Source of the DNA: a bacterium | GTDB lineage: Bacteria > Patescibacteriota > Minisyncoccia > UBA6257 > MFKM01 | NCBI GenBank assembly: GCA_030693325.1 | Contig: JAUYAV010000011.1 | Location: forward strand, 1,368 to 65,367 | DNA: 64,000 bases | Direction: 5' to 3' | Part shown: piece by piece, positions 18,277-57,757 of the stretch | Layout: each line of letters opens with the position of its first letter | Numbering within the stretch: position 1 is the first letter of the stretch | The notes under the pieces: model-generated | What the model was told of the DNA's origin: nothing | The model's database searches: none | What the model saw: only the letters and a program-made list of their open reading frames with translations | Program-made: the position numbers and the translations under genes

Positions 18277-18423
18277 TAGCCAAACCAAACTTGTCTGAGA
18301 AAATATCCCGCAGGCACTGAAAGATTGGTTTCGCCGTAGGCGAATTTCAGCGCCGAGGGAAAAGAAAATTTTGCCGCTGGAGCAAAATTATTCTGGTTTT
18401 CGAAGGCAAGTTTGGTTTGGCTA
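18277..18423 (+). mobile_element. ~140-bp structured repeat element, copy 1
   Basis: Terminal inverted repeats caaaccaaacttg/caagtttggtttg; shared core aatatcccgca...gaggg...cgctgga...attctgg. Confidence 0.85.
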
Positions 18424-18489
18424 AAACTAAAATCAATTCGGAAATGTATATTGATAATGCCATAATTTTTAGCTATAGTAAAGAAGAAT

Positions 18490-19299
18490 ATGGCCCGCGT
18501 TATTGCAATCTGTAATCAAAAAGGGGGAGTCGGAAAAACAACCACGGCGATGAACTTGGGCGCTTATTTAGCCGCTTTGGGACGGCGCTGTCTTTTGGTT
18601 GATTTTGACCCCCAAGCCAACGCCACTTCCGGTTTGGGGATAACGCCGCCACAAGAGTCAGTTTACACCGCTTTGATGAGCGGTCTAATCCCCAGCCATT
18701 TGATCAGAAGAACCGCCATTTTCGGCTACGAAGTTCTGCCGGCTTCCCAGGATTTAGCCGGCGCTTTGGTGGAATTAATTTCTTTGCCCGAGCGGGAATA
18801 TCAGTTAAGAAAAACTATCAATCAACTCCGGCATTTATACGATTTTATATTAATTGACTTGCCGCCCTCGCTTAATCTTCTGACTGTTAACGGGTTGATA
18901 GCCGCCGATGAAGTTTTGATGCCGATTCAATGCGAATATTACAGTTTGGAGGGGATAGGCCAGCTTTTAAAAACTATTGACCTTATTCGCGAAAATCTCG
19001 GCTATAAATTAAACGTGGCGGGTGCGGTTTTAACGATGTATAATAAAAAAGAACGGCTTTCTCGGGAAGTGGTTAAAGAAGTTAGAAGACATTTTCCTTA
19101 TCATGTTTTTAACTCTGAAATACCCCGAGCAGTCGCTTTGGCCGAAGCCCCAAGTTTCGGCAAACCCATTATTCTTTACGCTCCTAACACCCAAGCGGCT
19201 CGGGCTTATCTGCTTTTAACCAAAGAAATCATCAGCCAACAAGAGAAAGGCGCAAATAGTCAATTCGCTAATCAAGTTTTTGGTAACCTAATAACATAA
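18490..19299 (+). CDS. parA: ParA/Soj ATPase
   Basis: NQKGGVGKTTT, DPQANAT, AEAPSFG. Confidence 0.95.
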   Translation: MARVIAICNQKGGVGKTTTAMNLGAYLAALGRRCLLVDFDPQANATSGLGITPPQESVYTALMSGLIPSHLIRRTAIFGYEVLPASQDLAGALVELISLPEREYQLRKTINQLRHLYDFILIDLPPSLNLLTVNGLIAADEVLMPIQCEYYSLEGIGQLLKTIDLIRENLGYKLNVAGAVLTMYNKKERLSREVVKEVRRHFPYHVFNSEIPRAVALAEAPSFGKPIILYAPNTQAARAYLLLTKEIISQQEKGANSQFANQVFGNLIT

Positions 19300-19309
19300 T
19301 TTTTATAAT

Positions 19310-20344
19310 ATGCTCGGACGAGGTTTAGAATCTTTAATACCACGGAAAGATAATAAAGAAACGCCGGAAACCGAACAAAAAAATGCGTCTTCGGCGTCGG
19401 CGCCGGCTTCGGATTTTTTTTCATCCGATAGTCCGGAACTTAAAAAAGATTTAGCTGGTGTCTTACCTAAGCCGGAAGAAAATTTGAAATTAAACATCCA
19501 AGAACCTGCGCCGAAAAAAGATTTTCAGGAACTCCCCAGAAAACATCAGGAAGCCATATTTTTGATTGAAGTTGATGAAATCAAACCCAATCCTCATCAG
19601 CCAAGGCGCCATTTTGACGAAGAATCATTGAAAGAATTAGCCGCCTCCATTCAGGAATTCGGCATTCTCCAGCCGCTTCTCGTTTCCAAAATTGAAGAAG
19701 AAACCGAAAACGGCACCAAGGTAAGCTACCAATTGATAGCCGGTGAAAGAAGGTTTATGGCCGCCAAAATGCTCGGCCTGGAACGGGTGCCGGCAATTAT
19801 TAAAAAAATTGACCTTGAAACCAATAACCTGGAAATGGCGATCATTGAAAATATCCAGCGTGTTGACCTCAATCCGATAGAATCAGCCCGCGCTTTTGCC
19901 AAACTCCAGGACGAATTCCGCTTAACCCAGAGAGAAATCGCCCAAAGAGTGGGAAAAAGCCGGGAAGCGGTAGCCAATACTTTGCGGTTATTAAGCTTGC
20001 CCTCAAATATCCAGGATGCCCTGGCCCAAAAGAAAATAAACGAAAGCCAGGCCAGGATGCTTTTAACCGTCAGTGATTTAAACCAACAACAAGCGCTTTT
20101 TCAGGAATTAATAAACGGCGGCCTCAGTGTCAGAGATTTACGGGAAAAAATAAATCCCGAAGAAACAACCGGCCGTACCGAAGACCCGGAAAGTAAATAT
20201 ATGGAAAACCGGCTGGAAGAAGCGCTCGGCACTAAAGTCAATATCAGTAAAAATCAAAATAAAGGCAAAATCGTCATTAAATTTTTCTCACCGGAAGAAC
20301 TTGACGCCATTATCAAAAAAATCTGCCAGCCAGAGTCAGAATAA
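19310..20344 (+). CDS. parB: ParB/Spo0J
   Basis: LGRGLESLI, NPHQPR, AGERR, ENIQR, HTH. Confidence 0.95.
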   Translation: MLGRGLESLIPRKDNKETPETEQKNASSASAPASDFFSSDSPELKKDLAGVLPKPEENLKLNIQEPAPKKDFQELPRKHQEAIFLIEVDEIKPNPHQPRRHFDEESLKELAASIQEFGILQPLLVSKIEEETENGTKVSYQLIAGERRFMAAKMLGLERVPAIIKKIDLETNNLEMAIIENIQRVDLNPIESARAFAKLQDEFRLTQREIAQRVGKSREAVANTLRLLSLPSNIQDALAQKKINESQARMLLTVSDLNQQQALFQELINGGLSVRDLREKINPEETTGRTEDPESKYMENRLEEALGTKVNISKNQNKGKIVIKFFSPEELDAIIKKICQPESE

Positions 20345-20400
20345 TTTTGTCCAGGAGCAAACCAAACTTGCCTTCGAAAACCATACTTTTAATTAATGTG

Positions 20401-20625
20401 ATTTTTCACAAAACCTTTTCCGCCAGCAAATTTCCGTTCAGATAAATTATCTTCGCTCGTCCTCAGAAGGTAACGAAAAATATCGAACTCACCCAATCTT
20501 ACGAGGTTTAACCTCATAAGATTGGGATTCAGACAGCGAATATTTTTCTACTTCTTTCGTCCTCGCTCAGTAATTTATAACTTCACTTCAACAGGCTGGC
20601 TAAAAAAAGGTTTTGTGAAAAAAAT
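20401..20625. repeat. ~220-bp long imperfect hairpin (nested inverted repeats)
   Basis: Nested arms tttttcacaaaacctttt/aaaaggttttgtgaaaaa, gccagc/gctggc, ataaatta/taatttat, gaaaaatat/atatttttc, cccaatctta/taagattggg. Confidence 0.8.
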
Positions 20626-20662
20626 CTTCCTTACAAAACTTTCCTGAAAAGAAATTCAGGAG

Positions 20663-20801
20663 CAAACCAAACTTGTCTGAGAAAATATCCCGCAACCCCG
20701 ACGGGCTGGGTCTCGCCGAAGGCGAGCCGTCGGGGCGAGGGCAAAGAAAATTTTGCCGCTGGAGCAAAATTATTCTGGTTTTCGAAGGCAAGTTTGGTTT
20801 G
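20663..20801 (+). mobile_element. ~140-bp structured repeat element, copy 2
   Basis: Same ends and core as 18277-18423, with compensated inner stems. Confidence 0.85.
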
Positions 20802-20834
20802 TTTATTATTTTTTCCTCAACAACCTTAGATTAA

Positions 20835-21248
20835 TTAATATCTAATCTTTTTAATCTTATAAATTATTTTTATCGGGGAATTGATTTCTATTTCATCGGA
20901 AACTTTGTGATTCAGGAGCGCTTTGCCTACCGGCGACTCCGAAGATATTCTTCCTTCGCTGGGACTGGCTTCCAGTGTTCCCACGATTTCATATTCTTTA
21001 ATTTTACCATCGGAATTTTCCAGGGTAACAGTGGCCCCTAAATTGACGGTATCTTGTTTTTCTTTAGAAGGAATTTTGATAAGTTCGGCGTTTTTAAAAA
21101 CGTATTCCAGTTCCGCTATTTTAGATTCCGACAAATCAAAATTTTCCTCGGCTTTGGCCAGCCGGATTATCTTTAAATTCTTTAAATCCTGGTATTCTTT
21201 TTTTATCCTTTCCAGTCCTTTTTTAGTTAAATAAATTTTTTCTGACAT
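20835..21248 (-). CDS. GreA/GreB-family factor with shortened coiled coil
   Basis: IYLTKKG N-terminus, EASPSEGRISSESPVGKALL C-domain; lacks GDLSENAEY tip. Confidence 0.85.
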   Translation of the reverse strand: MSEKIYLTKKGLERIKKEYQDLKNLKIIRLAKAEENFDLSESKIAELEYVFKNAELIKIPSKEKQDTVNLGATVTLENSDGKIKEYEIVGTLEASPSEGRISSESPVGKALLNHKVSDEIEINSPIKIIYKIKKIRY

Positions 21249-21461
21249 ATATAGTTTATATTAAAAAACCTCCTTGGTTTCGGAGGTTCATCAGGTTTTT
21301 TATTTTTGTTTTTTATTTTTGGTTTATCCTGTTGAATCTCCGATGTAGGCCTTTGGTCGGGGTAATGACGCCGCCAAAAACCAAGCCGCGCATATAGCAG
21401 CCAGCGTGAAGATTCCAAAGATTGATTTTTGCTATTTTCTGACTCATTTTTATCTAATTTA

Positions 21462-21489
21462 ATTATAGGCGGGCAAGAAAGGTTGTCAA
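21462..21489 (-). promoter_or_regulatory. sigma70-type promoter (TTGACA-16-TATAAT) pointing towards the gre gene
   Basis: Consensus hexamers on the minus strand. Confidence 0.6.
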
Positions 21490-21620
21490 CCCCGTTAGAA
21501 ACTGACTTAGAATTCCCTATTTTTTGTGTAAAACACTAATTTGACAAATAAATCAGATAAAGACAATGGTATAAGAAAAAATTACTCAAGTAATTTTTTC
21601 TTCAGAGGTTTCTAACGGGG
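21490..21620. mobile_element. CCCCGTTAGAAA...TTTCTAACGGGG miniature element, left copy
   Basis: 13-bp terminal inverted repeats, AT-rich interior, 131 bp. Confidence 0.8.
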
Positions 21621-21632
21621 GCAAGCGAGAAC

Positions 21633-21664
21633 AAACAAAACCCCTCCGACTTGCGTCGGAGGGG
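21633..21664 (-). terminator. Intrinsic terminator
   Basis: cccctccgac-gcaa-gtcggagggg followed by ttttgttt on the minus strand. Confidence 0.75.
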
Positions 21665-21735
21665 AAACAGAATGGTTTTTCTTAGATTGGATAATATTGA
21701 TCCAACACAGAAAAACAATCACTCACTTAAAATTA

Positions 21736-21764
21736 AGTATAGCGTAAATTTCATAGAAAGTCAA
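21736..21764 (-). promoter_or_regulatory. sigma70-type promoter (TTGACT-17-TATACT)
   Basis: Near-consensus hexamers with 17-nt spacing on the minus strand. Confidence 0.6.
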
Positions 21765-21822
21765 CCCCAATTTTCACCCCGTAAGATAAACCCTCGCAAC
21801 AGGCGCGAAAGGATAGACCTGC

Positions 21823-21862
21823 GTTCCCTCACTGATATACTTAAGTATATCAGTGAGGGAAC
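21823..21862. repeat. 40-bp perfect palindrome with GATATACTTAAGTATATC core (also 26281-26318, 26455-26478)
   Basis: Read directly from the sequence. Confidence 0.9.
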
Positions 21863-22223
21863 TTATTACCCGGTGGCGGCGGTGAAAGTGCGGAGAGACT
21901 AAAGGAAGGGGAAATAACCATAGAAGACAAGAAATTCTATGAGGGATTTTTTGAGGAAATCGGGGAAGAACTAAGGAAATCAAAGGGAATGGGAGAGGGG
22001 AACAAAAAGCAGGATTAAATTATAGGCGGTAGGCTGTCCGCGCTAAAAGGCTTTGAGGGCAGATTCGTGGATGAGACGGCGATGAGTTTTGGGCTACCTA
22101 TAGATTCTAATTTCTCTTACTTGATATAGCCGCGAGCAAAGATTAAAATGGGCGGATAAAATCCCCAAAACTTTGCTTTAATATCGGAGGGATAATACTG
22201 TAAGAATTAATCTAGTATGAAGT

Positions 22224-22248
22224 ACTATCGAGGTTAAACCTCGATAGT
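22224..22248. repeat. CGAGGTT-x-ACCTCG REP-like palindrome (also 41415-41445, 20492-20526)
   Basis: actatcgaggttaaacctcgatagt. Confidence 0.8.
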
Positions 22249-22273
22249 CGGTAATCAGACATTCGTTTGCTCC

Positions 22274-24913
22274 TTAATTTGCCGCTTCATAAAAAAATTG
22301 GCCATAAGAATATTTATCTCCAGTAGCAGCAAAAGAACTACCATCCATATCTTTATTGAGAAGTATAATCGCTCCCCCTCCATTAGTTATATCTATTATT
22401 GCAATACGAGAAGCAGTATCATAAGTCCGCCCAAATGCCATTGAATTGGATGGCATTGAAATTGTGTAAGGAACTGTGAAGGATGTGACTGTACTATTGC
22501 TTACTCCAGTTAATTTATATTGAACAAACACTGTTTTTCCAATTTTCTTAGTCCAAATATATCCGACTGGAGTAACCCAACCTACCTTCGTAGAAATAGC
22601 AAAGTAATCCGCCCACACACCTTCTTCCGCCGGTTTCGGGCTAAACGCAAACGGCGTTGAGCCTTCTACTACCATACATCCGTCAAGGTAAGCAGTTACA
22701 GTCGTTCCAGCACCAAAAAAGATATAAGGACCAAAATTAGTTGAACCTCCATTATTAGACACCAGATGCGTAACAGTTAACCTTTGCCAAGTTGAATCTC
22801 CTGTATGGTAGGGTGAATAGTCTGCAATACCTGACCCAAATTCGTAAGCGACAACTCTTAATCTATCGGCTACATTACTCCAAGCCCAACAACCCATCGT
22901 TACTGTTTTACCTCTATAAGCCGCTATCCCCATAAGCTGATACAACCCATTAAAGTTTGCACCAGTCATTTTCGCAGAGTATGTTCCTAATTTAACAGTT
23001 GTTGATTCTCTAGATACAGCATCTCCACCAAATACCCACCCATCAGGGGCCGCACTTGTTCCTGCTGACCAGTTCTCAAAGTTGCCGTTAGAGAGGAGAT
23101 TGGTGGGGTTCATATTAGAGGCGTTCCAATTAATATTTCCACTTGCATTCACATTGCCAACATTCAAATCACTGGCAGTTATCACGCCGTAAGGCGCGGC
23201 GGGCGGAGTGAAATTGGAAGTCCAGCGGGCGATGCCTTTGGAGATGCGGAGTTCGTCGAGATAGCCGTTAAAATATCTAATTGAGCCACGCCATCCTATG
23301 GTCCAGTTACCTGTAAAATCAGGTATAGAATACGAAGCTGAAAAATCTCCAGTTGCTACCTGTATGCCATTGTAATACATTTTAAGATTATCTCCGTTAC
23401 GAACAACAGCAATGTGATACCAAGTATCTGCAACTATGGCTGTATCGGAAATAACATTTATTTTAACAACGCCTCCTTCTACAACCAAAAACCTAAATTT
23501 ACCCAAATCTGGACTCGTATTTCCATCTATAACTATAAGATTAGCTCCATCATTATACTGACTCCAAATAGGGGCATAATCATTTAGTGTTCCAGTAAAT
23601 CTCACCCAAGTATCAATAGTAAAATTCCCCGTTCCAAAAGCCCAATCTGCGGAATCTGGAACAGTAAGATAATCCGTGGTTCCGTTGAATAAGCCGCTCT
23701 TGGAACCAAGCTTGTATTGAGCCGTGGTTTGGGTGGCAGAGCCGACAGCGGTAACGGCTTTGCCGGTGGCCGAATCACTGAAGGAAGTTCCTGAACTCTC
23801 CATATGAAGCAATAACTTGTTGTAGCTATCTGTTGTCTGCAATCCTTGAGAAGCGTTTATCAATCCAGCAACGTCTAACATGAAACCTGGGCTCGCCGTC
23901 CCGATGCCGACGTTGCCGCCGTTTGGATTTAACGATAAATTATGATAAGCGCCAAGAGTTGCTCTGTTGGTAGATTGTATCCAGCCAGTAGGTCCACTTC
24001 CGTAATATCCAAAATCCATAACACCGTTATTTAATCCTTGCCCTATACGAAAACTTCCTGTTTGTGTTGAGCCAGTTGTTGCCGGAAGTCCGTTATCTCC
24101 TAAAATGTCTAATTTTAAACCCGGGTTCGCCGTCCCGATGCCGACCTTGCCGGCGTTGGTATTGTAGATATTGGTGGAGGAAGCGGCCCAACCAACGCCC
24201 AAATCAGCCCAGGAGCCACTCTTATAACCCCGGAAAGCATTACTCGCGGTGTTGTAGTAGATAGACCCGTTCTGGGCTCCGGCCACGGGGTCGATAGTCA
24301 ATTGTCCCACGTTAAGAAGATTAGAAATGTTTACATCTTTCCATTTGTAAGTGGCATCACCCAGGGAAAAAGAATTGTCGGCGTTGGGAATCAAACTATC
24401 GTCAAAGGTGGCAGCGCTCACTCTGCCGATGGCTATTTTGAGAGCTCGCGTTATCTGCTGATAGGGATTCTGGCTGTTATAGGTCAAAGCCAGGTTGATC
24501 TGGACAATGGCGTGGGCGTCGGGGTTCTCATACTTGGTGGCCTGGAACTGGGAAACCTTGACCTGGCTGTTGGTCAGAGGGGCGATGGCTCCGGTTCCCT
24601 GTTTGAGGTAGATGCCGTTAGCATCGGAGGAAATGATGGTGGGGTCTAAAGAGGAGGAAGCCATCCTCAAGACCAAACTGGACGAAGCGACTCCGGCCGG
24701 ATTTTCAATGTTGGCGCTTTCTCTGACCAACCTTTGAATAGTGGATTGGACAAAAGCCAACTGCTGGGTGAGCTCGGAATCAGCCGAGGTTTGGGTCTGA
24801 ACTCTGGTGAAGGTGATGAGGACGCCGGAAAAGACGCCGACGGAGATGGAGAAGATCACGGTATAGACTAACAATTCAATCAGAGTGAAACCTTTGTTGT
24901 TGGGGTGATCCAT
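22274..24913 (-). CDS. Type IV prepilin-like protein fused to fibre-like repeats, a LamG-like domain and a carbohydrate-binding-like domain (putative adhesin)
   Basis: KGFTLIELLVY cleavage/methylation motif; GxVGIGT repeats; 'FTIDTW...WYHIAVVR...GYLDELRIS' LamG pattern; 'NLLSNGNFE' CBM-like start. Confidence 0.88.
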   Translation of the reverse strand: MDHPNNKGFTLIELLVYTVIFSISVGVFSGVLITFTRVQTQTSADSELTQQLAFVQSTIQRLVRESANIENPAGVASSSLVLRMASSSLDPTIISSDANGIYLKQGTGAIAPLTNSQVKVSQFQATKYENPDAHAIVQINLALTYNSQNPYQQITRALKIAIGRVSAATFDDSLIPNADNSFSLGDATYKWKDVNISNLLNVGQLTIDPVAGAQNGSIYYNTASNAFRGYKSGSWADLGVGWAASSTNIYNTNAGKVGIGTANPGLKLDILGDNGLPATTGSTQTGSFRIGQGLNNGVMDFGYYGSGPTGWIQSTNRATLGAYHNLSLNPNGGNVGIGTASPGFMLDVAGLINASQGLQTTDSYNKLLLHMESSGTSFSDSATGKAVTAVGSATQTTAQYKLGSKSGLFNGTTDYLTVPDSADWAFGTGNFTIDTWVRFTGTLNDYAPIWSQYNDGANLIVIDGNTSPDLGKFRFLVVEGGVVKINVISDTAIVADTWYHIAVVRNGDNLKMYYNGIQVATGDFSASYSIPDFTGNWTIGWRGSIRYFNGYLDELRISKGIARWTSNFTPPAAPYGVITASDLNVGNVNASGNINWNASNMNPTNLLSNGNFENWSAGTSAAPDGWVFGGDAVSRESTTVKLGTYSAKMTGANFNGLYQLMGIAAYRGKTVTMGCWAWSNVADRLRVVAYEFGSGIADYSPYHTGDSTWQRLTVTHLVSNNGGSTNFGPYIFFGAGTTVTAYLDGCMVVEGSTPFAFSPKPAEEGVWADYFAISTKVGWVTPVGYIWTKKIGKTVFVQYKLTGVSNSTVTSFTVPYTISMPSNSMAFGRTYDTASRIAIIDITNGGGAIILLNKDMDGSSFAATGDKYSYGQFFYEAAN

Positions 24914-24960
24914 GTTTATTGATTAATATTTATTGGACGACCTTGGCTGGCCTGGGAAGG

Positions 24961-24993
24961 GGAAATAAAAACCCCGCTCTGACGAGGCGGGTT
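24961..24993 (-). terminator. Terminator-like hairpin inside the leader ORF
   Basis: aacccgcctc-gtca-gagcggggtt followed by a U-rich tail (tttattt) on the minus strand; one bulge. Confidence 0.55.
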
Positions 24994-25104
24994 GGCCAAA
25001 CTGTTGTTCAAATCAAAAACTACCTTGATTAAAAAGGCGACCGTAAGAATCAGGAGAAGATTGATGACCGCTAAGCGGCGGACTTGTTTACTGACTCCGC
25101 TTTT

Positions 25105-25163
<59 letters not shown>

Positions 25164-25331
25164 GACCCGATGGACAAAGATTGGAAGAAGTTAAATAGTT
25201 TCATAATAAAATTATAACATATTATATATTAATGAAAATCAAAATAGATTTTGCTATAATAAAAAAGGCAGGTAGCTGAGCACTCACTTAATAAAACAAA
25301 AAACGGAGGTCACCACTATCTGCCTTTTTCT

Positions 25332-26243
25332 ATGTTTCAGAAAAATATTCCTTTAAAAAAATACACCAGTTTCAAAATCGGCGGACCGGCCGATTATTTT
25401 TTTAAAGTTAGAAAAATAAAGAATCTTATTGAAGCCGTTAAAGAAGCAAAACAAAATAAAATACCAATTTTCATTTTTGCTGGAGGAACTAAAATATTAG
25501 TCAGTGATAAGGGCATCAAGGGGTTAGTTATAAAAATTCAAACTTCAAAAATTGAAATTAAAAAAAACAGAATCATCAGTGAAGCGGGAGTTAATTTAAA
25601 TAAATTAGTAGCCGCGTCAATTAAAAACGGCTTAACCGGCTTGGAATGGGCGATTGGCATTCCCGGCACAATCGGCGGCGCTATTCACGGCAACAGCGGG
25701 GCCTTCGGCGCTTCTATTTCCAACTCCGTAAAAAGCGTCACCGCCTTAAATCCGAAAAATTTTAAAATTAAAAAATATTCCGGCAAGCAATGCCGCTTCG
25801 GCTATCGGGACAGTATTTTTAAAAAAAATAAAAATATCATTCTTTCGGTGGAATTGCAGTTGAAACAAAACAAATCAAAAAATAATTTGGAAACGATTAG
25901 AGGATATTTAAAAAGAAGAAAAGAAAGAATCCCTGAATATTACTCGGCCGGAAGTGTTTTCAAAAATCTTAAATTCAAATCTTTAAACAAAGACATCCAA
26001 AAAATTATTCCCAAAAATAAAATCAAAGGCGGCATGGTGCCGGCGGGCTATCTTATTGAAAACTGCGGGCTAAAAGGAAAAAGTAGCGGTGGAGCGAAAA
26101 TTTCCGAACAACAAGCCAACATTATTATTAATTTTAATAAAGCCAGAGAAAAAGACGTTTCTTCGTTAATTGATTTAGCTAAAAAACAAGTCAAGAAAAA
26201 ATTCGGGGTTAAATTAGAAGAGGAAATAATTTATTTGGGCTAA
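25332..26243 (+). CDS. murB: UDP-N-acetylmuramate dehydrogenase
   Basis: TSFKIGGPAD, GLEWAIGIPGTIGG, FGYRDS, SAGSVFKN, LEEE. Confidence 0.95.
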   Translation: MFQKNIPLKKYTSFKIGGPADYFFKVRKIKNLIEAVKEAKQNKIPIFIFAGGTKILVSDKGIKGLVIKIQTSKIEIKKNRIISEAGVNLNKLVAASIKNGLTGLEWAIGIPGTIGGAIHGNSGAFGASISNSVKSVTALNPKNFKIKKYSGKQCRFGYRDSIFKKNKNIILSVELQLKQNKSKNNLETIRGYLKRRKERIPEYYSAGSVFKNLKFKSLNKDIQKIIPKNKIKGGMVPAGYLIENCGLKGKSSGGAKISEQQANIIINFNKAREKDVSSLIDLAKKQVKKKFGVKLEEEIIYLG

Positions 26244-26625
26244 GCGAACCAAACTTGCCCTCGGCCTCGCTTTGTCCGAGATCTTATACTGATATACTTA
26301 AGTATATCAGTATAAGATTATCCTCTTGATTAGAATATCGGATTTAAAGCATTAGATTAGAGTATTAGTATCGGAACAAACCCGATATTTCCTATATTTT
26401 TATTTCCTATATTTACAATATTTTCATTTATTTCCATTTTACATTTCTTCCAACAGCGATATACTTAAGTATATCGCTCCGGCAACATAGACTAAGCCCA
26501 ATGTACCCGTCGCAAAGGTTTATTTTATCTCCGATGTCTATCGGGGGACCCTGCCCGCCTTCGCGGTGCCGTAGCCCCGCTTCGGTGGGCGGAAGCCCGT
26601 ACCCGTCACATAGTTATCCCCATTT

Positions 26626-26756: not shown

Positions 26757-26827
26757 TTACTTTATTTCCCGATATGATAGAATAAACCTTATAGAAAAAA
26801 GAAGAGATGGTGAGGTTGTCTCTTCAT

Positions 26828-41571: not shown

Positions 41572-41756
41572 GAGACCTAACCCGTAGGGGCAACCTACGG
41601 CAGGGTTATAAAAACCAGTAACGGATAAAAAGCTCCTAGTCAGAGCTCCGTTACTGGTCATATGGGGAAACCCGTATGGGGGTCGCAAGACCTCGCTGGC
41701 TGGGAGCTTTGTGTTTTCATAAAGCTAAAATGTCGAACCCAGCTAGCGTTAGTTTC
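41572..41756 (+). ncRNA. Putative structured RNA or 5' leader of unknown family
   Basis: Five adjacent hairpins with GCAA/GAAA loops, downstream of a TTGACT...TATTAT promoter-like site. Confidence 0.6.
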
Positions 41757-43331: not shown

Positions 43332-43476
43332 AGGACTTACGCCGTTGCCTTGAAGAATATCCCGCAGGCGCTGAAAGCTTGGTTTCGCCGCAGGCGAATT
43401 TCAGTGCCGAGGGAAAAGAAATCCCGACCGCTGGAGTCGGAATATTCTGGTTCTGAAAGGCAATGGCGGAAGTCCT
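43332..43476 (+). mobile_element. ~140-bp structured repeat element, divergent copy
   Basis: Different outer arms (aggacttacgccgttgcctt/aaggcaatggcggaagtcct), same core motifs. Confidence 0.8.
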
Positions 43477-48718: not shown

Positions 48719-48789
48719 CTGCGGGGCTAGGAATCGGACCTAGATTCCATGGTTCAGAGCCATGTTGCCTACCATTAGCAGACCCCGCA
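48719..48789 (-). tRNA. tRNA-Gln(CTG)
   Basis: Cloverleaf; catgg-ctCTGaa-ccatg. Confidence 0.92.
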
Positions 48790-48796: not shown

Positions 48797-49495
48797 TTAA
48801 TATACTCTAAATTTAATCAATTTTCTAAATTTTTCAACCTCTAATTTTTTACGAAGTCTAGTTGAAGTTTTTCTAATCTCGGGATTATAACCAAGTAATT
48901 TTAACCCATTCTCAACATTTTTTAATAAACTTTGGTTTTTATTGGAAAATTGAAAGTTATAAGTACATGTCGGTTTATGAACCGATAAAGAACCCTCCGC
49001 TTCAAATAACCCTCTTAAATATCTGATTAAATAACTTTGGTTTTTTAAAATCCAATTAGGAGTTTTTATGTTTAAACGACCTCTATCGCCTGAAGGGATA
49101 CCTAATCTTTTTGAAATTTCTTTTTGATAAAGACCGATTCTTATATTGTTTTTATTGTAAACCTTGCTAACTGTTGGTTTCTTATTAAATATTTGTTTAG
49201 TTAATTTAGTATAACGATTAACAAAACCTAAATTATTAGAGTTTGCTGAAATTATAATTCTTTCTGTTCGTGGAAATTTACTAATATTGCCGTCGCCAAG
49301 AACAACTCCAATATATTCCGCTAAATTACCAGACAAGGAAAGGGGAGGATAATTTTGAGGAATTTTTCCAATTCTTCGCATTCTTTCCCGCCATTCCTTA
49401 AAATTATCAATTTTTTTCCGCTTCATTGTCCTAGCTGTCCTCAATACAGAGGGATGTGTATCTTTAGTGAATCCTTTATTCCAACTTGACTTCAT
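48797..49495 (-). CDS. Free-standing two-motif LAGLIDADG endonuclease-like protein
   Basis: LAEYIGVVLGDG and YLRGLFEAEGS motifs; N-terminal WNKG NUMOD-like motif; AT-richer than neighbours. Confidence 0.85.
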   Translation of the reverse strand: MKSSWNKGFTKDTHPSVLRTARTMKRKKIDNFKEWRERMRRIGKIPQNYPPLSLSGNLAEYIGVVLGDGNISKFPRTERIIISANSNNLGFVNRYTKLTKQIFNKKPTVSKVYNKNNIRIGLYQKEISKRLGIPSGDRGRLNIKTPNWILKNQSYLIRYLRGLFEAEGSLSVHKPTCTYNFQFSNKNQSLLKNVENGLKLLGYNPEIRKTSTRLRKKLEVEKFRKLIKFRVY

Positions 49496-49530
49496 TACGT
49501 AGTAATTTTACCATAAAAAGTATAAAATTA

Positions 49531-49551
49531 CTACCATTAGACGACTAGGCA
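49531..49551 (-). pseudogene. 5' fragment of a tRNA-Gln-like gene
   Basis: tgcctag-tc-gtc-taatggtag = acceptor 5' strand plus D-arm; shares ctaatggtag with the intact tRNA-Gln. Confidence 0.6.
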
Positions 49552-49629
49552 ATATCTATTAATCTAGCATAATACTGCCAAAATCTCCTTAGCTTCGCAA
49601 ATCTAAAAACTAAGTCCAATCGATTGGAC

Positions 49630-50490: not shown

Positions 50491-50492
50491 AA

Positions 50493-50999
50493 TTATATTT
50501 TTGCCGTTTCCTCTAGGGCTTCTTTGAAAAGTTTATTAGTCCTGTCAACAAAAAGAATCCCGTTCAAGTGATCTATTTCGTGCTGAAATACCCGTGCCGG
50601 CAATGCCCAGGCCTTAATCTTTATTTTCTTTCCGTTTTTATCAAAACCCGCCAGCGTTATCTGTTCCGGCCTTTCCACTAAACCCCAAATCCCCGGCACG
50701 CTAAGACAACCCTCTTCAAGCTCAATCTTTTCTTTTGAAACCTTAACAATGCCGGGATTGAAAATAGCATAAAATTTCGGCTTGCCTTTATCGCTTGGGA
50801 TTTCCGCGATAAAAAGCCGCCAGTCAAAGCCGAGCTGATTAGCGCTCAAGCCGATGCCTTTTACTTTTTTTATCGCCGCTCGCATTTTTTTGATTATTTC
50901 TTTAATTTCTGCCTTTTTATGTTTGGCGAAATCAAAATCAGGCGTTTTTCGCCGTAAAAATTTTTCTTCTTTTTTATTGTTGACAGTTAAAATATTCAT
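50493..50999 (-). CDS. def: Peptide deformylase
   Basis: GIGLSANQ, EGCLS, QHEIDH. Confidence 0.96.
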   Translation of the reverse strand: MNILTVNNKKEEKFLRRKTPDFDFAKHKKAEIKEIIKKMRAAIKKVKGIGLSANQLGFDWRLFIAEIPSDKGKPKFYAIFNPGIVKVSKEKIELEEGCLSVPGIWGLVERPEQITLAGFDKNGKKIKIKAWALPARVFQHEIDHLNGILFVDRTNKLFKEALEETAKI

Positions 51000-51001
51000 T
51001 A

Positions 51002-51277
51002 TTATTTTTTGCTATTTTTTATTTCTTGATAAAAAACCTTCATAAAATAAGCGCCTTTATTTTCTATATTTTTTCTTTCGGCGACACTCTTGGCTGTGGT
51101 AATTAATTTATGCTCGTCATGTTTTTTAGCCATTTTAATATAAAGCGATTTATGTTTTTCATCGCCGAGTATTTGAGCGATTGTTAAACCGGTAAACTGA
51201 AATTTTTCATAAACCCGGCTGGTTTTTTTCCGTTCTTTGATGATATTCAGATAATCTTTGTCTATATTTATGGACAT
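51002..51277 (-). CDS. Hypothetical protein
   Basis: ORF packed with def (2-nt gap). Confidence 0.7.
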   Translation of the reverse strand: MSINIDKDYLNIIKERKKTSRVYEKFQFTGLTIAQILGDEKHKSLYIKMAKKHDEHKLITTAKSVAERKNIENKGAYFMKVFYQEIKNSKK

Positions 51278-51280
51278 TTT

Positions 51281-51856
51281 ATGATAAAATTATACCGTAT
51301 GCGTCTCTTTATTGCCATAAATCTGCCTGAAAAAACAAAAAATGTCATAGAAGAAGCGGTTAATAAAATCAAGCCACTTTTTGATAATTATTCAGCCCAC
51401 TTTTCGCCGAAAAACAATTGGCATCTGACCATCACTTTTTTAGGATACCAGCCGCCGGAGGCCTTGGATTCTATTCTTAAATCAATCAAAGAAACCGCGG
51501 CACAATTTACCCACGTAAAAATAGATTTTGAAAGCATCAGCTACGGGCCGCCTGGCAAACCGGCTCGGATGGTCTGGCTGACCGGCGTTAAAAAAACTTC
51601 CGAAAAATTAAACGAACTGAAAATAAAATTAGACGAAACGCTTATTGAGAATGGCATAAAATTCAAGCAAGACAACCGGCGTTTTAACGCGCATCTTACT
51701 TTAGTGCGATTTCCCGATCCCTTGGGAAAATTGCCCGATAAACTAATAACTCCACTATCATTGTCTTTTGAAGCCGAAACTCTTGATTTAATGGAATCAC
51801 ATCTCAAGCAAACCGGCGCGGAATATGAAGTACTTTCTGAATTTGATTTTCATTAA
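51281..51856 (+). CDS. thpR: RNA 2',3'-cyclic phosphodiesterase (2H family)
   Basis: RLFIAI, HLTITFLG, HLTLVR; real start may be 51299. Confidence 0.9.
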   Translation: MIKLYRMRLFIAINLPEKTKNVIEEAVNKIKPLFDNYSAHFSPKNNWHLTITFLGYQPPEALDSILKSIKETAAQFTHVKIDFESISYGPPGKPARMVWLTGVKKTSEKLNELKIKLDETLIENGIKFKQDNRRFNAHLTLVRFPDPLGKLPDKLITPLSLSFEAETLDLMESHLKQTGAEYEVLSEFDFH

Positions 51857-51915
51857 TTTTTAATATAAAATTTATAAATCATGGACAAGAGATAGATTCT
51901 TGGCAAATTTCAAAA

Positions 51916-53127
51916 ATGGAAAACAAAAAAACATCCAATAAAAATTACGGTTTAATCCTCGGGATTGCTTTGCTAGTCAGCGTTTCCTATTCTTTTGGTT
52001 TCCAAGGCGGGCTTCGTAATGCCGAACCGAAAACCGTATACAAAGATAATCCGGAAATCGCCGCTGATTTTTCTACATTCTGGAAGGCCTGGGATACTTT
52101 TAAACAAAACTTCGTTCATAGCAAGGATATAACCGACCAGGATATGCTTTACGGAGCCATCTCCGGCCTGGTAAACGCGGGCAACGACCCTTACACTGTT
52201 TTTCTTAAGCCCAGCGATGCCAATAAATTCGAAGAGGATTTAAACGGAAACTTTGGAGGAATCGGCGCCCAAATTGATATCCGCAATAGTCAATTAATGG
52301 TCGTTGCTCCTTTGAAAGATTCGCCGGCTGAACGAGTGGGCCTGAAAAGCGGTGATAAAATCCTGAAAATTAATAGTACCTCCACCGACACTCTCGCCAC
52401 GATTGAAGAAGCGGTAAAACTGATTCGCGGAACAAAAGGAACGACGGTTGTCCTCACAATTTTAAGAGACGGCTGGGCATTGCCTAAAGAGATATCTATT
52501 ATCAGAGACACCATCGCCGTGCCTACTCTTGACTGGGAAATGAAATCAGACAATATCGCTTACATTCAGCTTTATAGTTTCAACGAAAACGCTCCCCTGG
52601 CATTTTATAAAGCCGCCCTGCCGGCTCTTATAAGCGGTGCTAAAGGTATAATCTTAGACCTTCGCAACAATCCCGGCGGCTATTTAGACGCGGCGACTAA
52701 TATCGCCGGCTGGTTCTTGAAAAGCGGGGATGTGGTCGTAAGAGAAGAATTCAGTTCCGGTAAACAGGATGTTCTTAAAGCCCAAGGCAACAGCGCCTTA
52801 GCCGATTTACCGGTGGTTGTTTTAGTCAATGGCGGTTCAGCTTCGGCTTCTGAAATTTTAGCCGGTGCCTTGCGGGACAACCGTCATGTCAAAATCATCG
52901 GCGAGACCACTTTCGGCAAAGGAACGGTTCAGGAACTTAAAAGATTTACTGACGGCTCGGAAATGAAAGTTTCAATTGCCCAATGGCTTTTGCCTAACGG
53001 CGAAACAATTGACAAAAAAGGCATAACTCCAGATATTGTCGTTGAATTAACCGAGGAAGACGCTACGGCCGGAAAAGACCCCCAACTGGACAAAGCAATG
53101 GAAATTATAAAAGCAGAAATTAAATAA
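51916..53127 (+). CDS. ctpA: Carboxyl-terminal protease S41
   Basis: DPYT, PDZ, DLRNNPGG, SASASEI, GKGTVQ. Confidence 0.93.
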   Translation: MENKKTSNKNYGLILGIALLVSVSYSFGFQGGLRNAEPKTVYKDNPEIAADFSTFWKAWDTFKQNFVHSKDITDQDMLYGAISGLVNAGNDPYTVFLKPSDANKFEEDLNGNFGGIGAQIDIRNSQLMVVAPLKDSPAERVGLKSGDKILKINSTSTDTLATIEEAVKLIRGTKGTTVVLTILRDGWALPKEISIIRDTIAVPTLDWEMKSDNIAYIQLYSFNENAPLAFYKAALPALISGAKGIILDLRNNPGGYLDAATNIAGWFLKSGDVVVREEFSSGKQDVLKAQGNSALADLPVVVLVNGGSASASEILAGALRDNRHVKIIGETTFGKGTVQELKRFTDGSEMKVSIAQWLLPNGETIDKKGITPDIVVELTEEDATAGKDPQLDKAMEIIKAEIK

Positions 53128-53134
53128 TCTAATT

Positions 53135-53617
53135 ATGAAAATAATTTTATCAGAAGACATCAAGGGACTGGGTAAAAAATTTGAAATCAAGGAAGTCAAG
53201 GACGGATACGCCAAAAATTTTTTAATACCCGGAAAATTAGCCAAAGCGGCAAACGAAGCCAATCTTAAAATTCTTACTCAGCAAAAAACAGTTTGGGAAA
53301 ATAAAGAAAAAGAGATTCTCGAGCACTTTGAGAAAATCGCCGATCAGCTTAAAAGCGCCGTCTTGGATTTTCCCATGAAAGTAAGCCTGCCTGCGCAGGC
53401 AGGGGAGAAAGTATCAATTTTCGGTTCAGTCAGCGCCGCGGAAATCATAAAGGCCATTAAAGACTTGGATACTTTAAAAAAGTATTCCGAAGAAATAAAA
53501 AATTTTGAAGTAATACTGGAGAAACCGATTAAAGAATTAGGAGAACACTTGGTGGAAATAAACCTCGGAAAAGGAATTAAATCAAAAGTTAAAATTAAAG
53601 TACACTCACAACCTTAA
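53135..53617 (+). CDS. rplI: 50S ribosomal protein L9
   Basis: [23 protein letters not shown]. Confidence 0.93.
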
Positions 53618-53867
53618 CTGACCGGTTGACGCCGTCAAAACGAGTGTGTCTTTTATGAGCAAACTTAACTTTCCCCGCTTTAAGAGAGTAAAGCGTGTCG
53701 TCATTCGCGCGGCGGACATTAAGACCGGGGAAATAATTAGTACCCCGCTGGCGAACAATGATGTCGCCTATTTTCACTATCTGGCCGTCGGTCACTTTAA
53801 TACCCAATCGTTGAGCCGCTGAATCTCTGCCTAATTTTGTTGAGCCTTTTGCTTTTGTATGTGCCAT
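53595..53867 (-). CDS. rpmA: 50S ribosomal protein L27
   Basis: [23 protein letters not shown]. Confidence 0.96.
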
Positions 53868-53910
53868 ATTAAAAAATCAAAATCAGATTAAATTCTAATT
53901 TATATAATAT

Positions 53911-54069
53911 ATGTTGTCAAGTTTCAAAAATTTAATTCAGGAAAATAAAAGAAATATCATAATAACTTTTCTGTTGATTCTTGTAATCTCTTTAAGCTTC
54001 GGTTTGGGTTATCTTTTCGCCAAAGAGAACAACCACGCCCCGATTATTATTGAAAAATGCTCGGGATAA
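53911..54069 (+). CDS. Small single-TM protein (52 aa, not in the ORF track)
   Basis: MLSSFKNLIQENKRNIIITFLLILVISLSFGLGYLFAKENNHAPIIIEKCSG. Confidence 0.6.
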   Translation: MLSSFKNLIQENKRNIIITFLLILVISLSFGLGYLFAKENNHAPIIIEKCSG

Positions 54070-54263
54070 AAGAAATTTTGCGACGATATTTATAGCGTTG
54101 CAAAATCTCTTTGGGGTTTTGCGACGAATAATTTATTCGTTGCAACAACCCTTATTTTACGACAGATAGATTTGCTAAAATTAAAACGATGTATTATAAT
54201 AATTTTATATTTGAATAATTTGTTCTTTAAAAAAAGAAATATAAAAAAGGAGGGATAAATACC

Positions 54264-54539
54264 ATGAAGGGTAATCATATAAAATATTATCCGAATGTAA
54301 TAGGATTCATATCCAAACGATTGAGAGAAAAGTTTCCGAAAGTTAAGCCGAGGAAAAATCTGAAAAACACCCCGGCATATCTTCTTTGGATGATGCAAGA
54401 GATGCAAAAATTCGATGATTCAGTGAAAGCTGGCAGATGGATTGGCTGGATAATGGCACATGCGGAAATGCTCGGAATTATGACGAACGAAAAGTCACGG
54501 AAATTAGCTAGAATGGATTGCCGACAAGGATTTACTTAA
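54264..54539 (+). CDS. Hypothetical protein
   Basis: Strong SD (aggagg) upstream; 'HL/YLLWM...KAGRWIGWI' motif. Confidence 0.75.
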   Translation: MKGNHIKYYPNVIGFISKRLREKFPKVKPRKNLKNTPAYLLWMMQEMQKFDDSVKAGRWIGWIMAHAEMLGIMTNEKSRKLARMDCRQGFT

Positions 54540-54585
54540 ATAATCCCGAAAATTAATAACGCAAATCTATCAAAGGAGGTGCAAA

Positions 54586-54876
54586 ATGAGCAAGAAAGAA
54601 ACTCTTGGAAAAGCAATGACCCCGGAAGAAATAATGAAACAGGCCGAATATACAGCACAGAAAGCCATAAAACGGCTCCAAGAATCAATCGACCATGGAT
54701 TTATGACCTATCCGGAGCTTATCGAAGTCCTTAAGTCTCATCTCAAGAAATCAATAGACGAGATGATAATTTTTAGGCCGGACAATCTTCCGTTTTCTCT
54801 GAAAAAAATTGGGCTAAATAAAATCTATAAAGCCCTCATAGAAAAAGAAAAAAGAGAGGAAAAACGGCGAAACTAA
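54586..54876 (+). CDS. Hypothetical protein
   Basis: Strong SD (aggaggt) upstream. Confidence 0.7.
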   Translation: MSKKETLGKAMTPEEIMKQAEYTAQKAIKRLQESIDHGFMTYPELIEVLKSHLKKSIDEMIIFRPDNLPFSLKKIGLNKIYKALIEKEKREEKRRN

Positions 54877-54890
54877 AGAAATATTAATTA

Positions 54891-54921
54891 TAATAGCCCG
54901 TAAAATTTTACGGGCTATTTT
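54891..54921. terminator. Bidirectional terminator-like palindrome between convergent genes
   Basis: aatagcccgtaaaattttacgggctatt. Confidence 0.65.
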
Positions 54922-55698
54922 TTATGATATATATCCGGTCTGTTTCAGCCAGTATTCATTTTCCCATTCCCAAAGTTTCTTGGCGCCCAAAAACGCCTTA
55001 AAATCTTCCTGCCAATAAGGAAATTCCTTTAGTTCGATGTCGCCTTTGAGTTCCGACCACTGGTGTTCGCAATTTCTGGCTTTTGCGCTGTAGCCGCCGT
55101 TAAGCCACGGCAATTTTATTTTTTCCCGGCCGCCTTTTTGGCGTAAAGTGGCGCCGCAGTTAAGGCAAGTTTTAATCTGGTCAATTCTTAAAATCCAGCG
55201 TGTCTGAATATTTTTAAAATCATTTTGGACGGCCGCTATGTAAGCGGATGTTTGGAGATTATAATCGCGATAAATCGCCTGGGAAGTTTTAATGTCTAAA
55301 ACTCCGAATTTGCCGTCAATAAGGGCCAAGGCGTCAATAGTGCCGGCGTAGCGTTCATCAAAATTAATAATTTGTTTTTCCACGAACTGTTCATCAACCT
55401 GGATGTTTTTGGCTTCTTTAAATTTTAAAAATGCGTCAACCGCCGGAGCAATTGTCGGGTCAACAACGGGGGACTGACCGATAAGAAACTGCTCAACTGT
55501 TTCGTGCATTAAAGTGCCTTCGGCGGCTGATGCATTTTTGACCGCTTCCCCTGCGTTAAAATTATTCATTTCGGCGTAAAAGCGATAAAGCGCCGGCTTG
55601 GCTTTGATTTCAATGATTTTAGTCACGCGAGGATACCAAGCACCGTCAATTTCATAGCCGCTTGAATCTTTGAACTGCCCCAAATTGGAATAATACAT
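54922..55698 (-). CDS. PD-(D/E)XK exonuclease-like protein with zinc-ribbon insert
   Basis: YPRVT, GTLMH, YAGTID, DIKTS, QTSAY; CLNC...CEH. Confidence 0.8.
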   Translation of the reverse strand: MYYSNLGQFKDSSGYEIDGAWYPRVTKIIEIKAKPALYRFYAEMNNFNAGEAVKNASAAEGTLMHETVEQFLIGQSPVVDPTIAPAVDAFLKFKEAKNIQVDEQFVEKQIINFDERYAGTIDALALIDGKFGVLDIKTSQAIYRDYNLQTSAYIAAVQNDFKNIQTRWILRIDQIKTCLNCGATLRQKGGREKIKLPWLNGGYSAKARNCEHQWSELKGDIELKEFPYWQEDFKAFLGAKKLWEWENEYWLKQTGYIS

Positions 55699-55861
55699 AA
55701 TATCTCCATATCTTAGCAGGGAAGCCAAGATATTCAAGGGTTATATCTGTCGTACAAGATACCTTTTGCGTCAGATAATAAAAATCTAACGCAAAAGGTT
55801 GCGGTTATTTTACAACAATTCTTTAAATAATATAAAGAACTATCGTAAAATAACCTTACTT

Positions 55862-56272
55862 TTATTTTATAAAAGATAATCCGGCTTTGATTAGATTCGC
55901 GATTCCCTGGAAAATCCAGACAAAAAATTCCCCCACTTTTTGAAATACCAAAACGATATTAAGCCCGATATGGGTCTTTAGCCATTCATTCGTATTCCCC
56001 AGGCCCCGAGTAAGCCACCTGAAGCCATTTGCCACATCCTCGCCCGACTTAGGAATGGCTCCGACAACCTGGTTGAGAAATGAAAATTTGGAAAAATCAA
56101 TATTTATATTGCTGAAGGTTTTGAATAAATCGGTTAAGGGCTGCGGGATAAAACTCTGAATTTTTTCCGGCGTCGGTATATCTGAAATATTAACTTCAGC
56201 CAAAGAAATTTTAGACGCTGACAAAATGAATGCCGATAGTAAAATTAATAGAAACAAACGCTTGTAATTCAT
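55862..56272 (-). CDS. Secreted or membrane hypothetical protein
   Basis: Signal peptide, amphipathic helices. Confidence 0.65.
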   Translation of the reverse strand: MNYKRLFLLILLSAFILSASKISLAEVNISDIPTPEKIQSFIPQPLTDLFKTFSNINIDFSKFSFLNQVVGAIPKSGEDVANGFRWLTRGLGNTNEWLKTHIGLNIVLVFQKVGEFFVWIFQGIANLIKAGLSFIK

Positions 56273-56293
56273 ATTTTTATAATAAAATAAATT

Positions 56294-57757
56294 TTATAAA
56301 TAGTCAAGAGGATTCAAAGTCGCTCCATAGGGCTGGAGGCCGCAAGTGTTGCTGTTTTTTATTTCGGGTGAAAGCAAGGTCTGGCCTCCGCCGTAGATAT
56401 TCGCATAAACCGTAAAATGGAGATGCGAGCCGGTAGAAAAACCTGTATTACCACTATAACCAATCCGGACTCCCCTATTTACGATATCGCCGACTTTCAC
56501 CTCTTGCAAAGAAAGATGAGTATATAATGTTGAAAGATTATTGTCGTGTTTAATCACGATATATTTTCCATAAGAACCGCCGTATTTCTTTTTACCATAC
56601 CAAACCGGAGGACAATATTTATCGGTATTCCCGACAGCTATCACCCGGCCGTTTTCGGCCGCGAAAACCTCCGTCGAGACAGGTACGCCGATATCAATTC
56701 CGTTATGAAATCCGCCATTGCCCGTGCCTTCATTGCAGGCCGGATAAGATTTTCTGGCAAAAGAATCGACAATACAGCCGTATCCCTGGGTTAAATTCGC
56801 TTTCAAATCTAAATTCAAGGGCATGGCTAAAACTCCAGACCGCGGTACAGGCAGGATATTCGGATCAATTTTTGCTCTTAATTCGGATTCAATTTTGTCA
56901 ATTTCGGCGCCGACTGCCTGTTGTATTTTTTCCAGCTCATCAATTCTTTGCTGATAGGCGCTTCCTTGTTTTTTATTGACGGCCAAAAGATTTTGTTGCT
57001 CTGCTTTTTGATCTTGAACTATAAGTTTTCTATTCTGCGAATCGGCTTTTGCCGCTTCCTGATTTTGCTCTTTCTGCGAAACATCGCCTAATTTCTGGAA
57101 ACGTTCGTCGTGGAGCTGCCGAAGCGTGGCTACTTCCGTGGCTAAATTAGTATTAAGGTCAAGCAAGTTTTGAGTTTCGGAAATAGTGTCAGTCAAGCTT
57201 TTATTTTTCAACAAAATATTTAAAATCCCTTCGCCTTCTTTTTCATTAAGCTCTCTTAATAAATTAATGATGGCCTGTTTCTCAATATCGGACTTATTTC
57301 CTATATCTTTGATTTCACTATTCAAAGATTCAATTTCCAAGCCAAGTTTTTCAATAGTGATTCCGCTGGATTTAATTGACAAATTTAACTGGCTGATTTG
57401 ATAATCGTTCTTTTTAATATCTTTTTGAATAGTGGCGCTTTCTTTGTTTAATTCGTTGAGATTATCAAGAATTTTTTGGCGCTCGGAATCAATCTGTTGA
57501 AGCTCGGCGCTTTTCTGGTTGATAGCATCTCTGAGATCTTGAGGAGTGGAAGCCTGAACGGTAGAAAATAGAAAATAGAAAATAGAAAATAGAAAGATAA
57601 AAACAATCCAACCAAACTTGTTTGAGAAAATATCCCGCAGGCGTCCAAAGATTGGTCTCCGCGAAGCGGAGTTTGGACGCCGAGGGAAAAGAAAATTTTG
57701 CCGCTGGAGCAAAATTATTCTGGTTTTTGAAAACAAGTTTGGTTGGATGCTATTCAT
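56294..57757 (-). CDS. M23 peptidase with coiled coil (EnvC-like); N-terminus carries an inserted repeat element
   Basis: HNGID, YTHL, GFSTGSHLHF; ATG overlaps the gltX stop. Confidence 0.9.
   Translation of the reverse strand: MNSIQPNLFSKTRIILLQRQNFLFPRRPNSASRRPIFGRLRDIFSNKFGWIVFIFLFSIFYFLFSTVQASTPQDLRDAINQKSAELQQIDSERQKILDNLNELNKESATIQKDIKKNDYQISQLNLSIKSSGITIEKLGLEIESLNSEIKDIGNKSDIEKQAIINLLRELNEKEGEGILNILLKNKSLTDTISETQNLLDLNTNLATEVATLRQLHDERFQKLGDVSQKEQNQEAAKADSQNRKLIVQDQKAEQQNLLAVNKKQGSAYQQRIDELEKIQQAVGAEIDKIESELRAKIDPNILPVPRSGVLAMPLNLDLKANLTQGYGCIVDSFARKSYPACNEGTGNGGFHNGIDIGVPVSTEVFAAENGRVIAVGNTDKYCPPVWYGKKKYGGSYGKYIVIKHDNNLSTLYTHLSLQEVKVGDIVNRGVRIGYSGNTGFSTGSHLHFTVYANIYGGGQTLLSPEIKNSNTCGLQPYGATLNPLDYL
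57562..57595. repeat. (TAGAAAA)4+ heptamer tandem repeat in the signal-peptide region
   Basis: Read directly. Confidence 0.85.
57606..57748 (+). mobile_element. ~140-bp structured repeat element, copy inside the M23 CDS
   Basis: Same ends and core as 18277-18423. Confidence 0.85.

Follow-up and report, generated by a model that had tools for sequence, protein, structure and literature searches.

A 64,000-nucleotide stretch of a Patescibacteriota genome (the window; positions 1,368 to 65,367 of contig JAUYAV010000011.1, assembly GCA_030693325.1) carries four copies of an element of about 140 nt. The locus raises the question of whether this element works as folded single-stranded DNA (ssDNA) or as RNA, and how its copies come to lie where they do. 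The element is non-coding and multicopy and forms a branched, Y-shaped fold on one selected strand. It is gained, lost, inverted and nested among relatives, exchanges whole modules between copies and is biased to the C-rich strand. Since the one-strand fold is kept by compensatory change and the copies show replication polarity, a mobile folded-ssDNA element is the likely reading. In its full form, an orphan, fork-coupled mobile element that is recognised as folded ssDNA and moved by a trans-acting enzyme, we give this reading about an even chance.

The four copies and the host genome

The four copies reported in the initial annotation are confirmed in their coordinates, + strand, motifs and arm pairs. 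Their apical loops are, as claimed, c-GTA-g, c-GAA-g, c-GCA-g and c-GAA-g for copies 1–4. Gene names in the following list are presumptive.

18277..18423, + strand: copy 1, between a tRNA gene (18143-18226, - strand) and a gene taken to be parA-like
18277..18296, + strand: 5' arm of the outer stem of copy 1, pairing with 18404-18423, then a tandem G·A pair
18323..18329, + strand: conserved bulge L2 of copy 1, GATTGGT here, GCWYGGT in the family form
18330..18344, + strand: apical hairpin of copy 1, variable and dispensable, with the c-GTA-g triloop at 18336-18338
18375..18381, + strand: conserved loop L3 of copy 1, CGCTGGA, on an 11-bp arm
20337..20385, - strand: orphan 3' outer arm and 3' half of an L3 arm, the remnant of an older copy
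20663..20801, + strand: copy 2, between convergent genes taken to be parB-like and greA-like, directly 3' of an unrelated rod-like repeat
43332..43476, + strand: copy 3, whose outer arms are of the host genome's second type, upstream of a gene taken to be DEAD-box helicase-like
57606..57748, + strand: copy 4, overlapping the open reading frame (ORF) 56294-57757 (- strand)

The reverse complement of copy 4 supplies in-frame codons ~4–51 of that ORF. The host genome comprises 661 kb in 25 contigs. A profile built from the four window copies finds 13 full copies in it, with E values from 1.8e-47 to 3.6e-28, and the next-best match is a fragment (E 6e-4). A covariance model likewise recovers the 13 full copies. 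Outside the window, one copy is nested within the arms of another and one bears an extra hairpin.

The fold is maintained by compensatory change

The fold was assessed in an alignment of 52 copies, consisting of three window copies and 49 of 123 distinct pattern matches; the columns fixed by the search pattern are invariant by construction. The predicted pairing holds in 98.5% of 1507 pair cells. Compensatory cells number 313, against 75 in shuffles, and 19 of 29 pairs have changed on both sides. The covariation score is 0.599, compared with 0.164 for shuffled alignments (0/500) and 0.05–0.125 for slid partners.

The outer stem is free in sequence and constrained in length, with a median of 26 bp, and usually carries a tandem G·A (length and mismatches were read from the 83 of 113 copies having an ungapped stem of at least 14). 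Inside it lies a three-way junction, and its two tips, GCWYGG and CGCWGG, are conserved. The first junction arm is sequentially composed of a CCC/GGG helix, a GNA/GA loop, 9–10 bp, the bulge GCWYGGT and an apical hairpin that is variable or absent. The second arm consists of 11 bp closed by the terminal loop CGCWGGA. In 174 of 199 parsed copies, 9–10 nt separate the bulge L2 from the beginning of helix P2. The conserved core in 99 model matches chosen without the pattern is CGSAG, the GCWYGG bulge, CGAG and CGCWGG. Several motifs had been described as both invariant and unpaired. The invariance stands, but CCC pairs with GGG, GAA with TTC, and ATA/ACA before TCCC with TG-T.

The third base of L2 and the last base of L3 change together (T/A 160, T/G 1, A/A 6, A/G 24), and both tip motifs are lost jointly in 8 of 219 copies. 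This pattern suggests a contact between the two tips, although subfamily descent could yield the same covariation. In one subtype (L004, L007-L010, L012-L014, L053, L084, L092, L146) neither conserved tip is kept: an AT-rich loop, which reads TATAAT in some copies, stands in for one and a CRNA tetraloop for the other.

One strand is selected and carries DNA-type loops

The mismatches of the outer stems are strongly strand-asymmetric. Under symmetric scoring, the 83 stems contain 127 G·T against 27 A·C, and 155 G·A against 8 T·C; tandem GA occurs 53 times and its mirror never. The strand chosen in the initial annotation is therefore the selected strand, and its proposal that the fold is under selection is borne out for that one strand by both covariation and mismatches.

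Two sets of apical loops contain GNA in 24/73 and 17/61 cases and the mirror TNC in 2 and 1. GNRA occurs 0 and 4 times in the same sets, and UNCG is absent from all 134 loops. Background hairpins show no such bias, with GNA:TNC ratios of 13:12 in the host genome and 3:3 in a second comparison. The DNA-type loops are thus aligned with the folding strand, unlike background hairpins. The cGNAg triloop, thought to be invariant, is only enriched, and the apical hairpin is missing from some copies. GNA loops are described in PMC13037366 as forming extra-stable DNA mini-hairpins with a Tm of 70–76 °C, and the RNA counterpart r(GCGAAAGC) as melting at 39 °C. The loop bias favours action as folded ssDNA rather than RNA. 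It falls short of proof, since the element can dispense with its apical hairpin.

Orientation fits replication better than transcription

The four window copies indeed share one orientation, but this is weak evidence on its own, as it would occur by chance in 1 of 8 cases. Nor can these copies test polarity, because the window is a GC-skew plateau of its contig. Across the family, the folding strand is the C-rich strand in 58 of 75 copies (10–20 kb windows), and in 44 of the 53 copies where |skew| is at least 0.1. At 163 short loci, motif-strand genes have a lower fourfold-site GC skew (-0.109, n=102) than genes on the opposite strand (+0.008, n=124; p=2e-5). The bias is strict in two genomes, G231 (13/13, including a strand switch that follows the skew on one contig) and G165 (14/14). 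In the host genome, leaving the window aside, ~7 of 9 copies lie on the C-rich strand by our assignment from skew; on contig C20, copies of both orientations occur within a single replichore.

As a rule, the G-rich strand is the leading strand. This fits the skew minimum of the host genome, beside a gene that we take to be dnaA-like, and in G231 the rRNA and majority gene orientation. An exception in G231 is the rpoBC-str-S10 cluster (contig C5, 230–250 kb, L335), which lies on the C-rich strand despite strong skew. The folding strand is probably on the leading-strand template, opposite to IS608.

Copies are found near stop codons in either sense and are enriched between convergent genes. Among the 75 copies there are 55 contacts within 60 nt of a stop codon, and the mRNA bears the reverse complement of the element in 42 of them. 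Clean co-directional contexts are antisense (OO) in 15 and sense (SS) in 13 cases in one set, and 20 and 7 in the other. In leading-strand operons the C-rich split is 45 vs 12. In lagging-strand operons it is 5 vs 2 (n=7, from automatic gene calls, one of the five being weakly skewed), so that replication fits better than an antisense rule, on a small sample. The comparison of orientation with replication, proposed in the initial annotation, therefore comes out positive: family-wide, orientation tracks replication better than transcription.

Copies turn over between relatives

The orthologous site of copy 1 is empty in the three congeners shown (3/3). Copy 3 was likewise not seen upstream of the orthologous gene in 3/3 congeners shown, although the upstream neighbour differs there. 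Copy 4 recurs in congener G004 (L359), where the 78 nt that were assembled are identical; G001 and G003 are without it, and G002 has a remnant-like form. At the site of copy 2, a congener contains a whole copy in the opposite orientation (L038), and the orphan arm at 20337-20385 remains in the window. Congener copies with syntenic flanks define 11 distinct sites that are empty in the host genome and six that are shared, and at the six shared sites the inner modules differ between host genome and congener.

The termini are inverted repeats that vary by copy and lineage, with two arm types within the host genome alone. Arms change in blocks, and whole modules are exchanged between copies. Many copies carry disruptive inserts, and copy spacing is irregular. 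The empty congener sites are too diverged for the element ends to be fixed from them.

Other repeats are associated with the element. Smaller palindromes of a separate family invade some congener copies. Genes of ~85 aa encoding GIY-YIG proteins lie in inverted repeats of up to ~20 bp (L375, L378, L367, L384, L377), and a gene-less palindrome with L375 ends invades main-element copies in G004. At L348 and L349 (G001, G003), 5' halves of the element run straight into a -10-like box or a host gene's start codon. L033 and L346 (G002, G001) contain a sister element, a rod with many tandem G·A pairs and a CGCTGG loop, which adjoins or is fused to the main element; L033 also has GCATGG. These two loci hint at a superfamily that may share recognition motifs. 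An unrelated rod-like repeat of ~220 nt occupies window positions 20400-20620, directly before copy 2, and has four long matches in the genome. One of these four again directly precedes a copy of the main element, and the same pairing is found in a congener.

Distribution and novelty

By BLAST, 12 of 61 related genomes contain the family; all four congeners are among them and give 2–22 matches. An exact-pattern scan of species-representative genomes yields at least 124 loci. The 80 titled matches listed comprise 71 from Patescibacteria, 8 labelled 'bacterium' and 1 cyanobacterium; the cyanobacterial match and one other non-folding match were excluded before all counts. With covariance models, carriers amount to at least 34 of 151 genomes of the class and at least 14 of 151 of the phylum, the host genome being counted in both; these are lower bounds in which the best 22 candidates per genome were scored. 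The spread is patchy, with 0–22 copies per genome.

The family was not matched in plasmid and phage collections. Viral contigs give 0 matches by the strict pattern and 37 by a looser pattern, 0 of which pass the model. A metagenome scan for 5' halves, aimed at a gene-bearing autonomous form, returned six loci and no autonomous form: four are ordinary or contig-cut copies, one is a 5' half joined to unrelated sequence, and one is without a profile match.

The suggested check against Rfam was run, and the four copies match no catalogued RNA family. Rfam 15 at gathering score gives no match over the four copies, ribozymes included. Permissive settings give weak overlaps alone for copies 1 and 2, the best being a plant miRNA model (E 0.021, 22 bits vs a cut-off of 50). 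Mimicry of rRNA was considered and rejected, the best hits on host 23S and 16S regions having E values of 0.37 and 0.7. No description of the family was found in the literature searched, although it may be listed among unnamed clusters in the supplements of two 2026 bioRxiv surveys and of PMC5737381. The present analysis itself tested the polarity relative to replication, the loop bias against background hairpins and the candidate enzymes.

Points against a mobile element

Several results weigh against a mobile ssDNA element. No mobilising enzyme was found. The initial annotation linked the fold to HUH Y1 transposases; this link is not supported, as no Y1 was found in the host genome or in 9 of 16 other carriers. 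G231 and G349 are without Y1, and the carriers without it include a 100%-complete one with 13 copies. Among the matches listed, Y1 is not commoner with the element (22/33 carriers vs 70/117 non-carriers), and neither reverse transcriptase (8/33 vs 49/117) nor GIY-YIG (18/20 vs 18/20) tracks it. A linked RAYT/TnpA gene was also sought, and none of the 12 Y1 loci contains a copy of the element. No GIY-YIG gene is flanked by element arms in 21 inspected. The protein of window 54922-55737 does not track the element either (9/20 carriers vs 6/20 non-carriers). When 925 neighbour ORFs were clustered, housekeeping genes alone recurred beside copies. A real partner could escape these tests, because diverged copies may be present in apparent non-carriers and mobile genes are lost from assemblies.

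No consistent target-site duplication was seen at 13 copies, the best direct repeats being 0–3 nt and differing, and no conserved terminal motif or flank position is found in the 83 stems. The polarity is partial in G318 (C-rich strand in 4/8 copies) and in the short-locus orientation test (103/163). The p-values overstate the effect, since neither the copies of one genome nor related genomes count as independent. Replication and transcription are separable in only seven copies, those in lagging-strand operons. The leading-strand template is normally not single-stranded, and a three-way junction that also makes a tertiary contact is a more usual feature of RNA.

In the host genome, 582 ORF starts were read and 63 ORFs were scanned against libraries (13 NCBIfam, 50 Pfam). 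Among them are two recombinases, nucleases of the LAGLIDADG and GIY-YIG types, and a reverse transcriptase accompanied by bAvd. The ~150 bp between one LAGLIDADG gene and the nearest copy are within chance by our estimate. The ORF at window 54922-55737 (- strand) encodes a conserved 271-aa protein without a Pfam match, present in 15 of 40 genomes searched, which we presume to be nuclease-like.

Comparison with known systems

Few ssDNA structures with a natural function are known, and almost all of these are simple hairpins. In PMC5737381 a more complex one is called 'rare'.

Like REP/BIME/REPIN-RAYT sequences as described in 10.1101/279083, the element is a multicopy extragenic hairpin near gene ends, patchy and mosaic-forming, and as with those sequences a trans-acting enzyme is presumed to handle it in ssDNA form. 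Unlike REPs, which are simple hairpins of 21–65 nt in the same source, it measures ~140 nt and has a branched head. Its stem is free in sequence, whereas that of REPs is conserved; it has no GT[AG]G foot and no REPtron, and several high-copy genomes lack Y1. Membership was rejected on two grounds: the 83 stems show no conserved flank position that could be a GT[AG]G foot, and no cognate tnpA_REP flanked by copies was found.

The IS200/IS605 family (IS608, ISDra2) shares strand-specific folded DNA and replication-coupled orientation (PMC5027513). The element differs in having neither tnpA nor separate left and right ends. In the account given in PMC5027513, the active strand of IS608 and ISDra2 is on the lagging-strand template. 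A non-autonomous derivative was rejected, as 58 of 75 copies lie on the C-rich strand.

The attC sites of sedentary chromosomal integrons are also folded ssDNA defined more by structure than by sequence, and their active strand is mostly located on the template of the leading strand (25 of 30 integrons), according to PMC5371416. In contrast, copies of the element stand singly among housekeeping genes rather than between cassettes, and the head is branched. Membership was rejected, since flanks are mostly housekeeping and no integrase lies beside copies or recurs.

Rickettsia palindromic elements are inserted in frame into genes, an occasional habit that the element shares through copy 4. With these elements, ERIC and bacterial miniature inverted-repeat transposable elements (MITEs), it further shares a size of 105–170 bp, a long stem-loop and a place 3' of genes (PMC3184786). 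Like MITEs, it is non-coding, multicopy and variably present between relatives. Unlike in ERIC and MITEs, the termini are the least conserved part, and the inner head holds the conserved, covarying structure. A classical MITE (ERIC, Correia, RUP) was rejected because its terminal inverted repeats would be conserved and the arms here differ.

Alternative explanations

A structured RNA made from the folding strand, such as a ribozyme, a protein-binding small RNA or a retro-mobile RNA, is rather unlikely. Its polarity would arise via fork integration or antisense preference. The three-way junction, fixed arm lengths and coupled distal loops are what such an RNA would have, two stem positions admit Watson-Crick or G·U pairs only (C-G 42/U·G 10; A-U 45/G·U 7), and with RNA parameters the + strand folds 6–9 kcal/mol better than the - strand. 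However, the apical loops are of the wrong kind (GNRA 4 and UNCG 0 vs GNA 41 among 134). Relative to the genes beside it, the folding strand more often runs antisense (OO 15, SS 13; OO 20, SS 7), so read-through would not make folding-strand RNA. Reverse transcriptase is not enriched in carriers (8/33 vs 49/117), and the element has neither an Rfam match nor likeness to host rRNAs.

It is unlikely that the element is a host-serving ssDNA signal on the leading-strand template, for priming, restart or protein loading, that is host-selected and occasionally duplicated. The strict polarity of two genomes (13/13, 14/14) and the strong purifying selection where no transposase was found would suit such a signal, as would the GNA mini-hairpins in phage G4 and ssiA priming signals described in PMC13037366. 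Yet the element was not found in 117 of the 151 class genomes searched, its positions turn over within one genus, its copies are unevenly spaced, and disruptive inserts interrupt many of them.

Hairpins at mRNA 3' ends, serving as ERIC- or REP-like terminators or stabilisers, would account for the 55 near-stop contacts among 75 copies and the enrichment between convergent genes. This explanation is improbable: 42 of the 55 contacts put the reverse complement in the mRNA, where the G·T, G·A and GNA features vanish, and a terminator would not need a conserved head.

It is highly improbable that the paired arms are an unselected by-product of template-switch correction of palindromes, which fits the block-wise arm changes and module swaps but is strand-symmetric, contradicting G·T >> A·C, tandem GA 53:0 and GNA 41:3, and would not preserve the lengths of the arms or the two loop motifs throughout a phylum.

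Proposed mechanism

For a mobile folded-ssDNA element, copying to new sites likely takes place at replication forks, by an enzyme acting in trans. The two fixed-length arms would probably unite the GCWYGG bulge and the CGCWGG loop into a recognition surface, and the stem is probably recognised by its length, not its sequence. The polarity could originate if the leading-strand template (equivalently, the nascent lagging strand) is where the folding strand becomes inserted or has the better survival. The harm done by a copy is probably smallest immediately after a stop codon, which would let copies persist at such places. By analogy, such an element would resemble REPIN and ERIC in its ecology, and attC in its definition by shape and its leading-strand-template position.

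A broader proposal, which we consider doubtful, is that phylum-wide, protein-less elements of tertiary-folded ssDNA are spliced into the nascent lagging strand/leading-strand template without a HUH transposase. The agent would be a novel enzyme or the host replication enzymes, or the DNA fold would itself contribute to the catalysis.

Other features of the window and genome

A LOOT RNA lies at window 41574-41694 (+ strand; 92 bits vs a cut-off of 46.4). A group I intron match is found at 5190-5416 (+ strand) in the 23S rRNA gene; the 16S gene is on another contig. A free-standing LAGLIDADG-like gene at 48797-49495 (- strand) adjoins a tRNA (48719-48789), and the host genome has at least four LAGLIDADG genes. 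On contig C12, a reverse transcriptase adjoins a bAvd-like gene (L235), and the two probably represent a diversity-generating retroelement. Its candidate targets are several genes whose pilin-like N-termini are almost identical, one of them at window 22274-24913 (- strand).

Implications

The covariance models and the polarity test bring a search for the enzyme within immediate reach. If true, the combination of a branched fold, coupled loops, DNA-type tips and a polarity opposite to that of IS608 would point to a novel route by which small DNA moves. Such a combination would, in addition, contribute to explaining the turnover of intergenic DNA and, as at copy 4, the origin of new protein N-termini in the tiny genomes of the Candidate Phyla Radiation.

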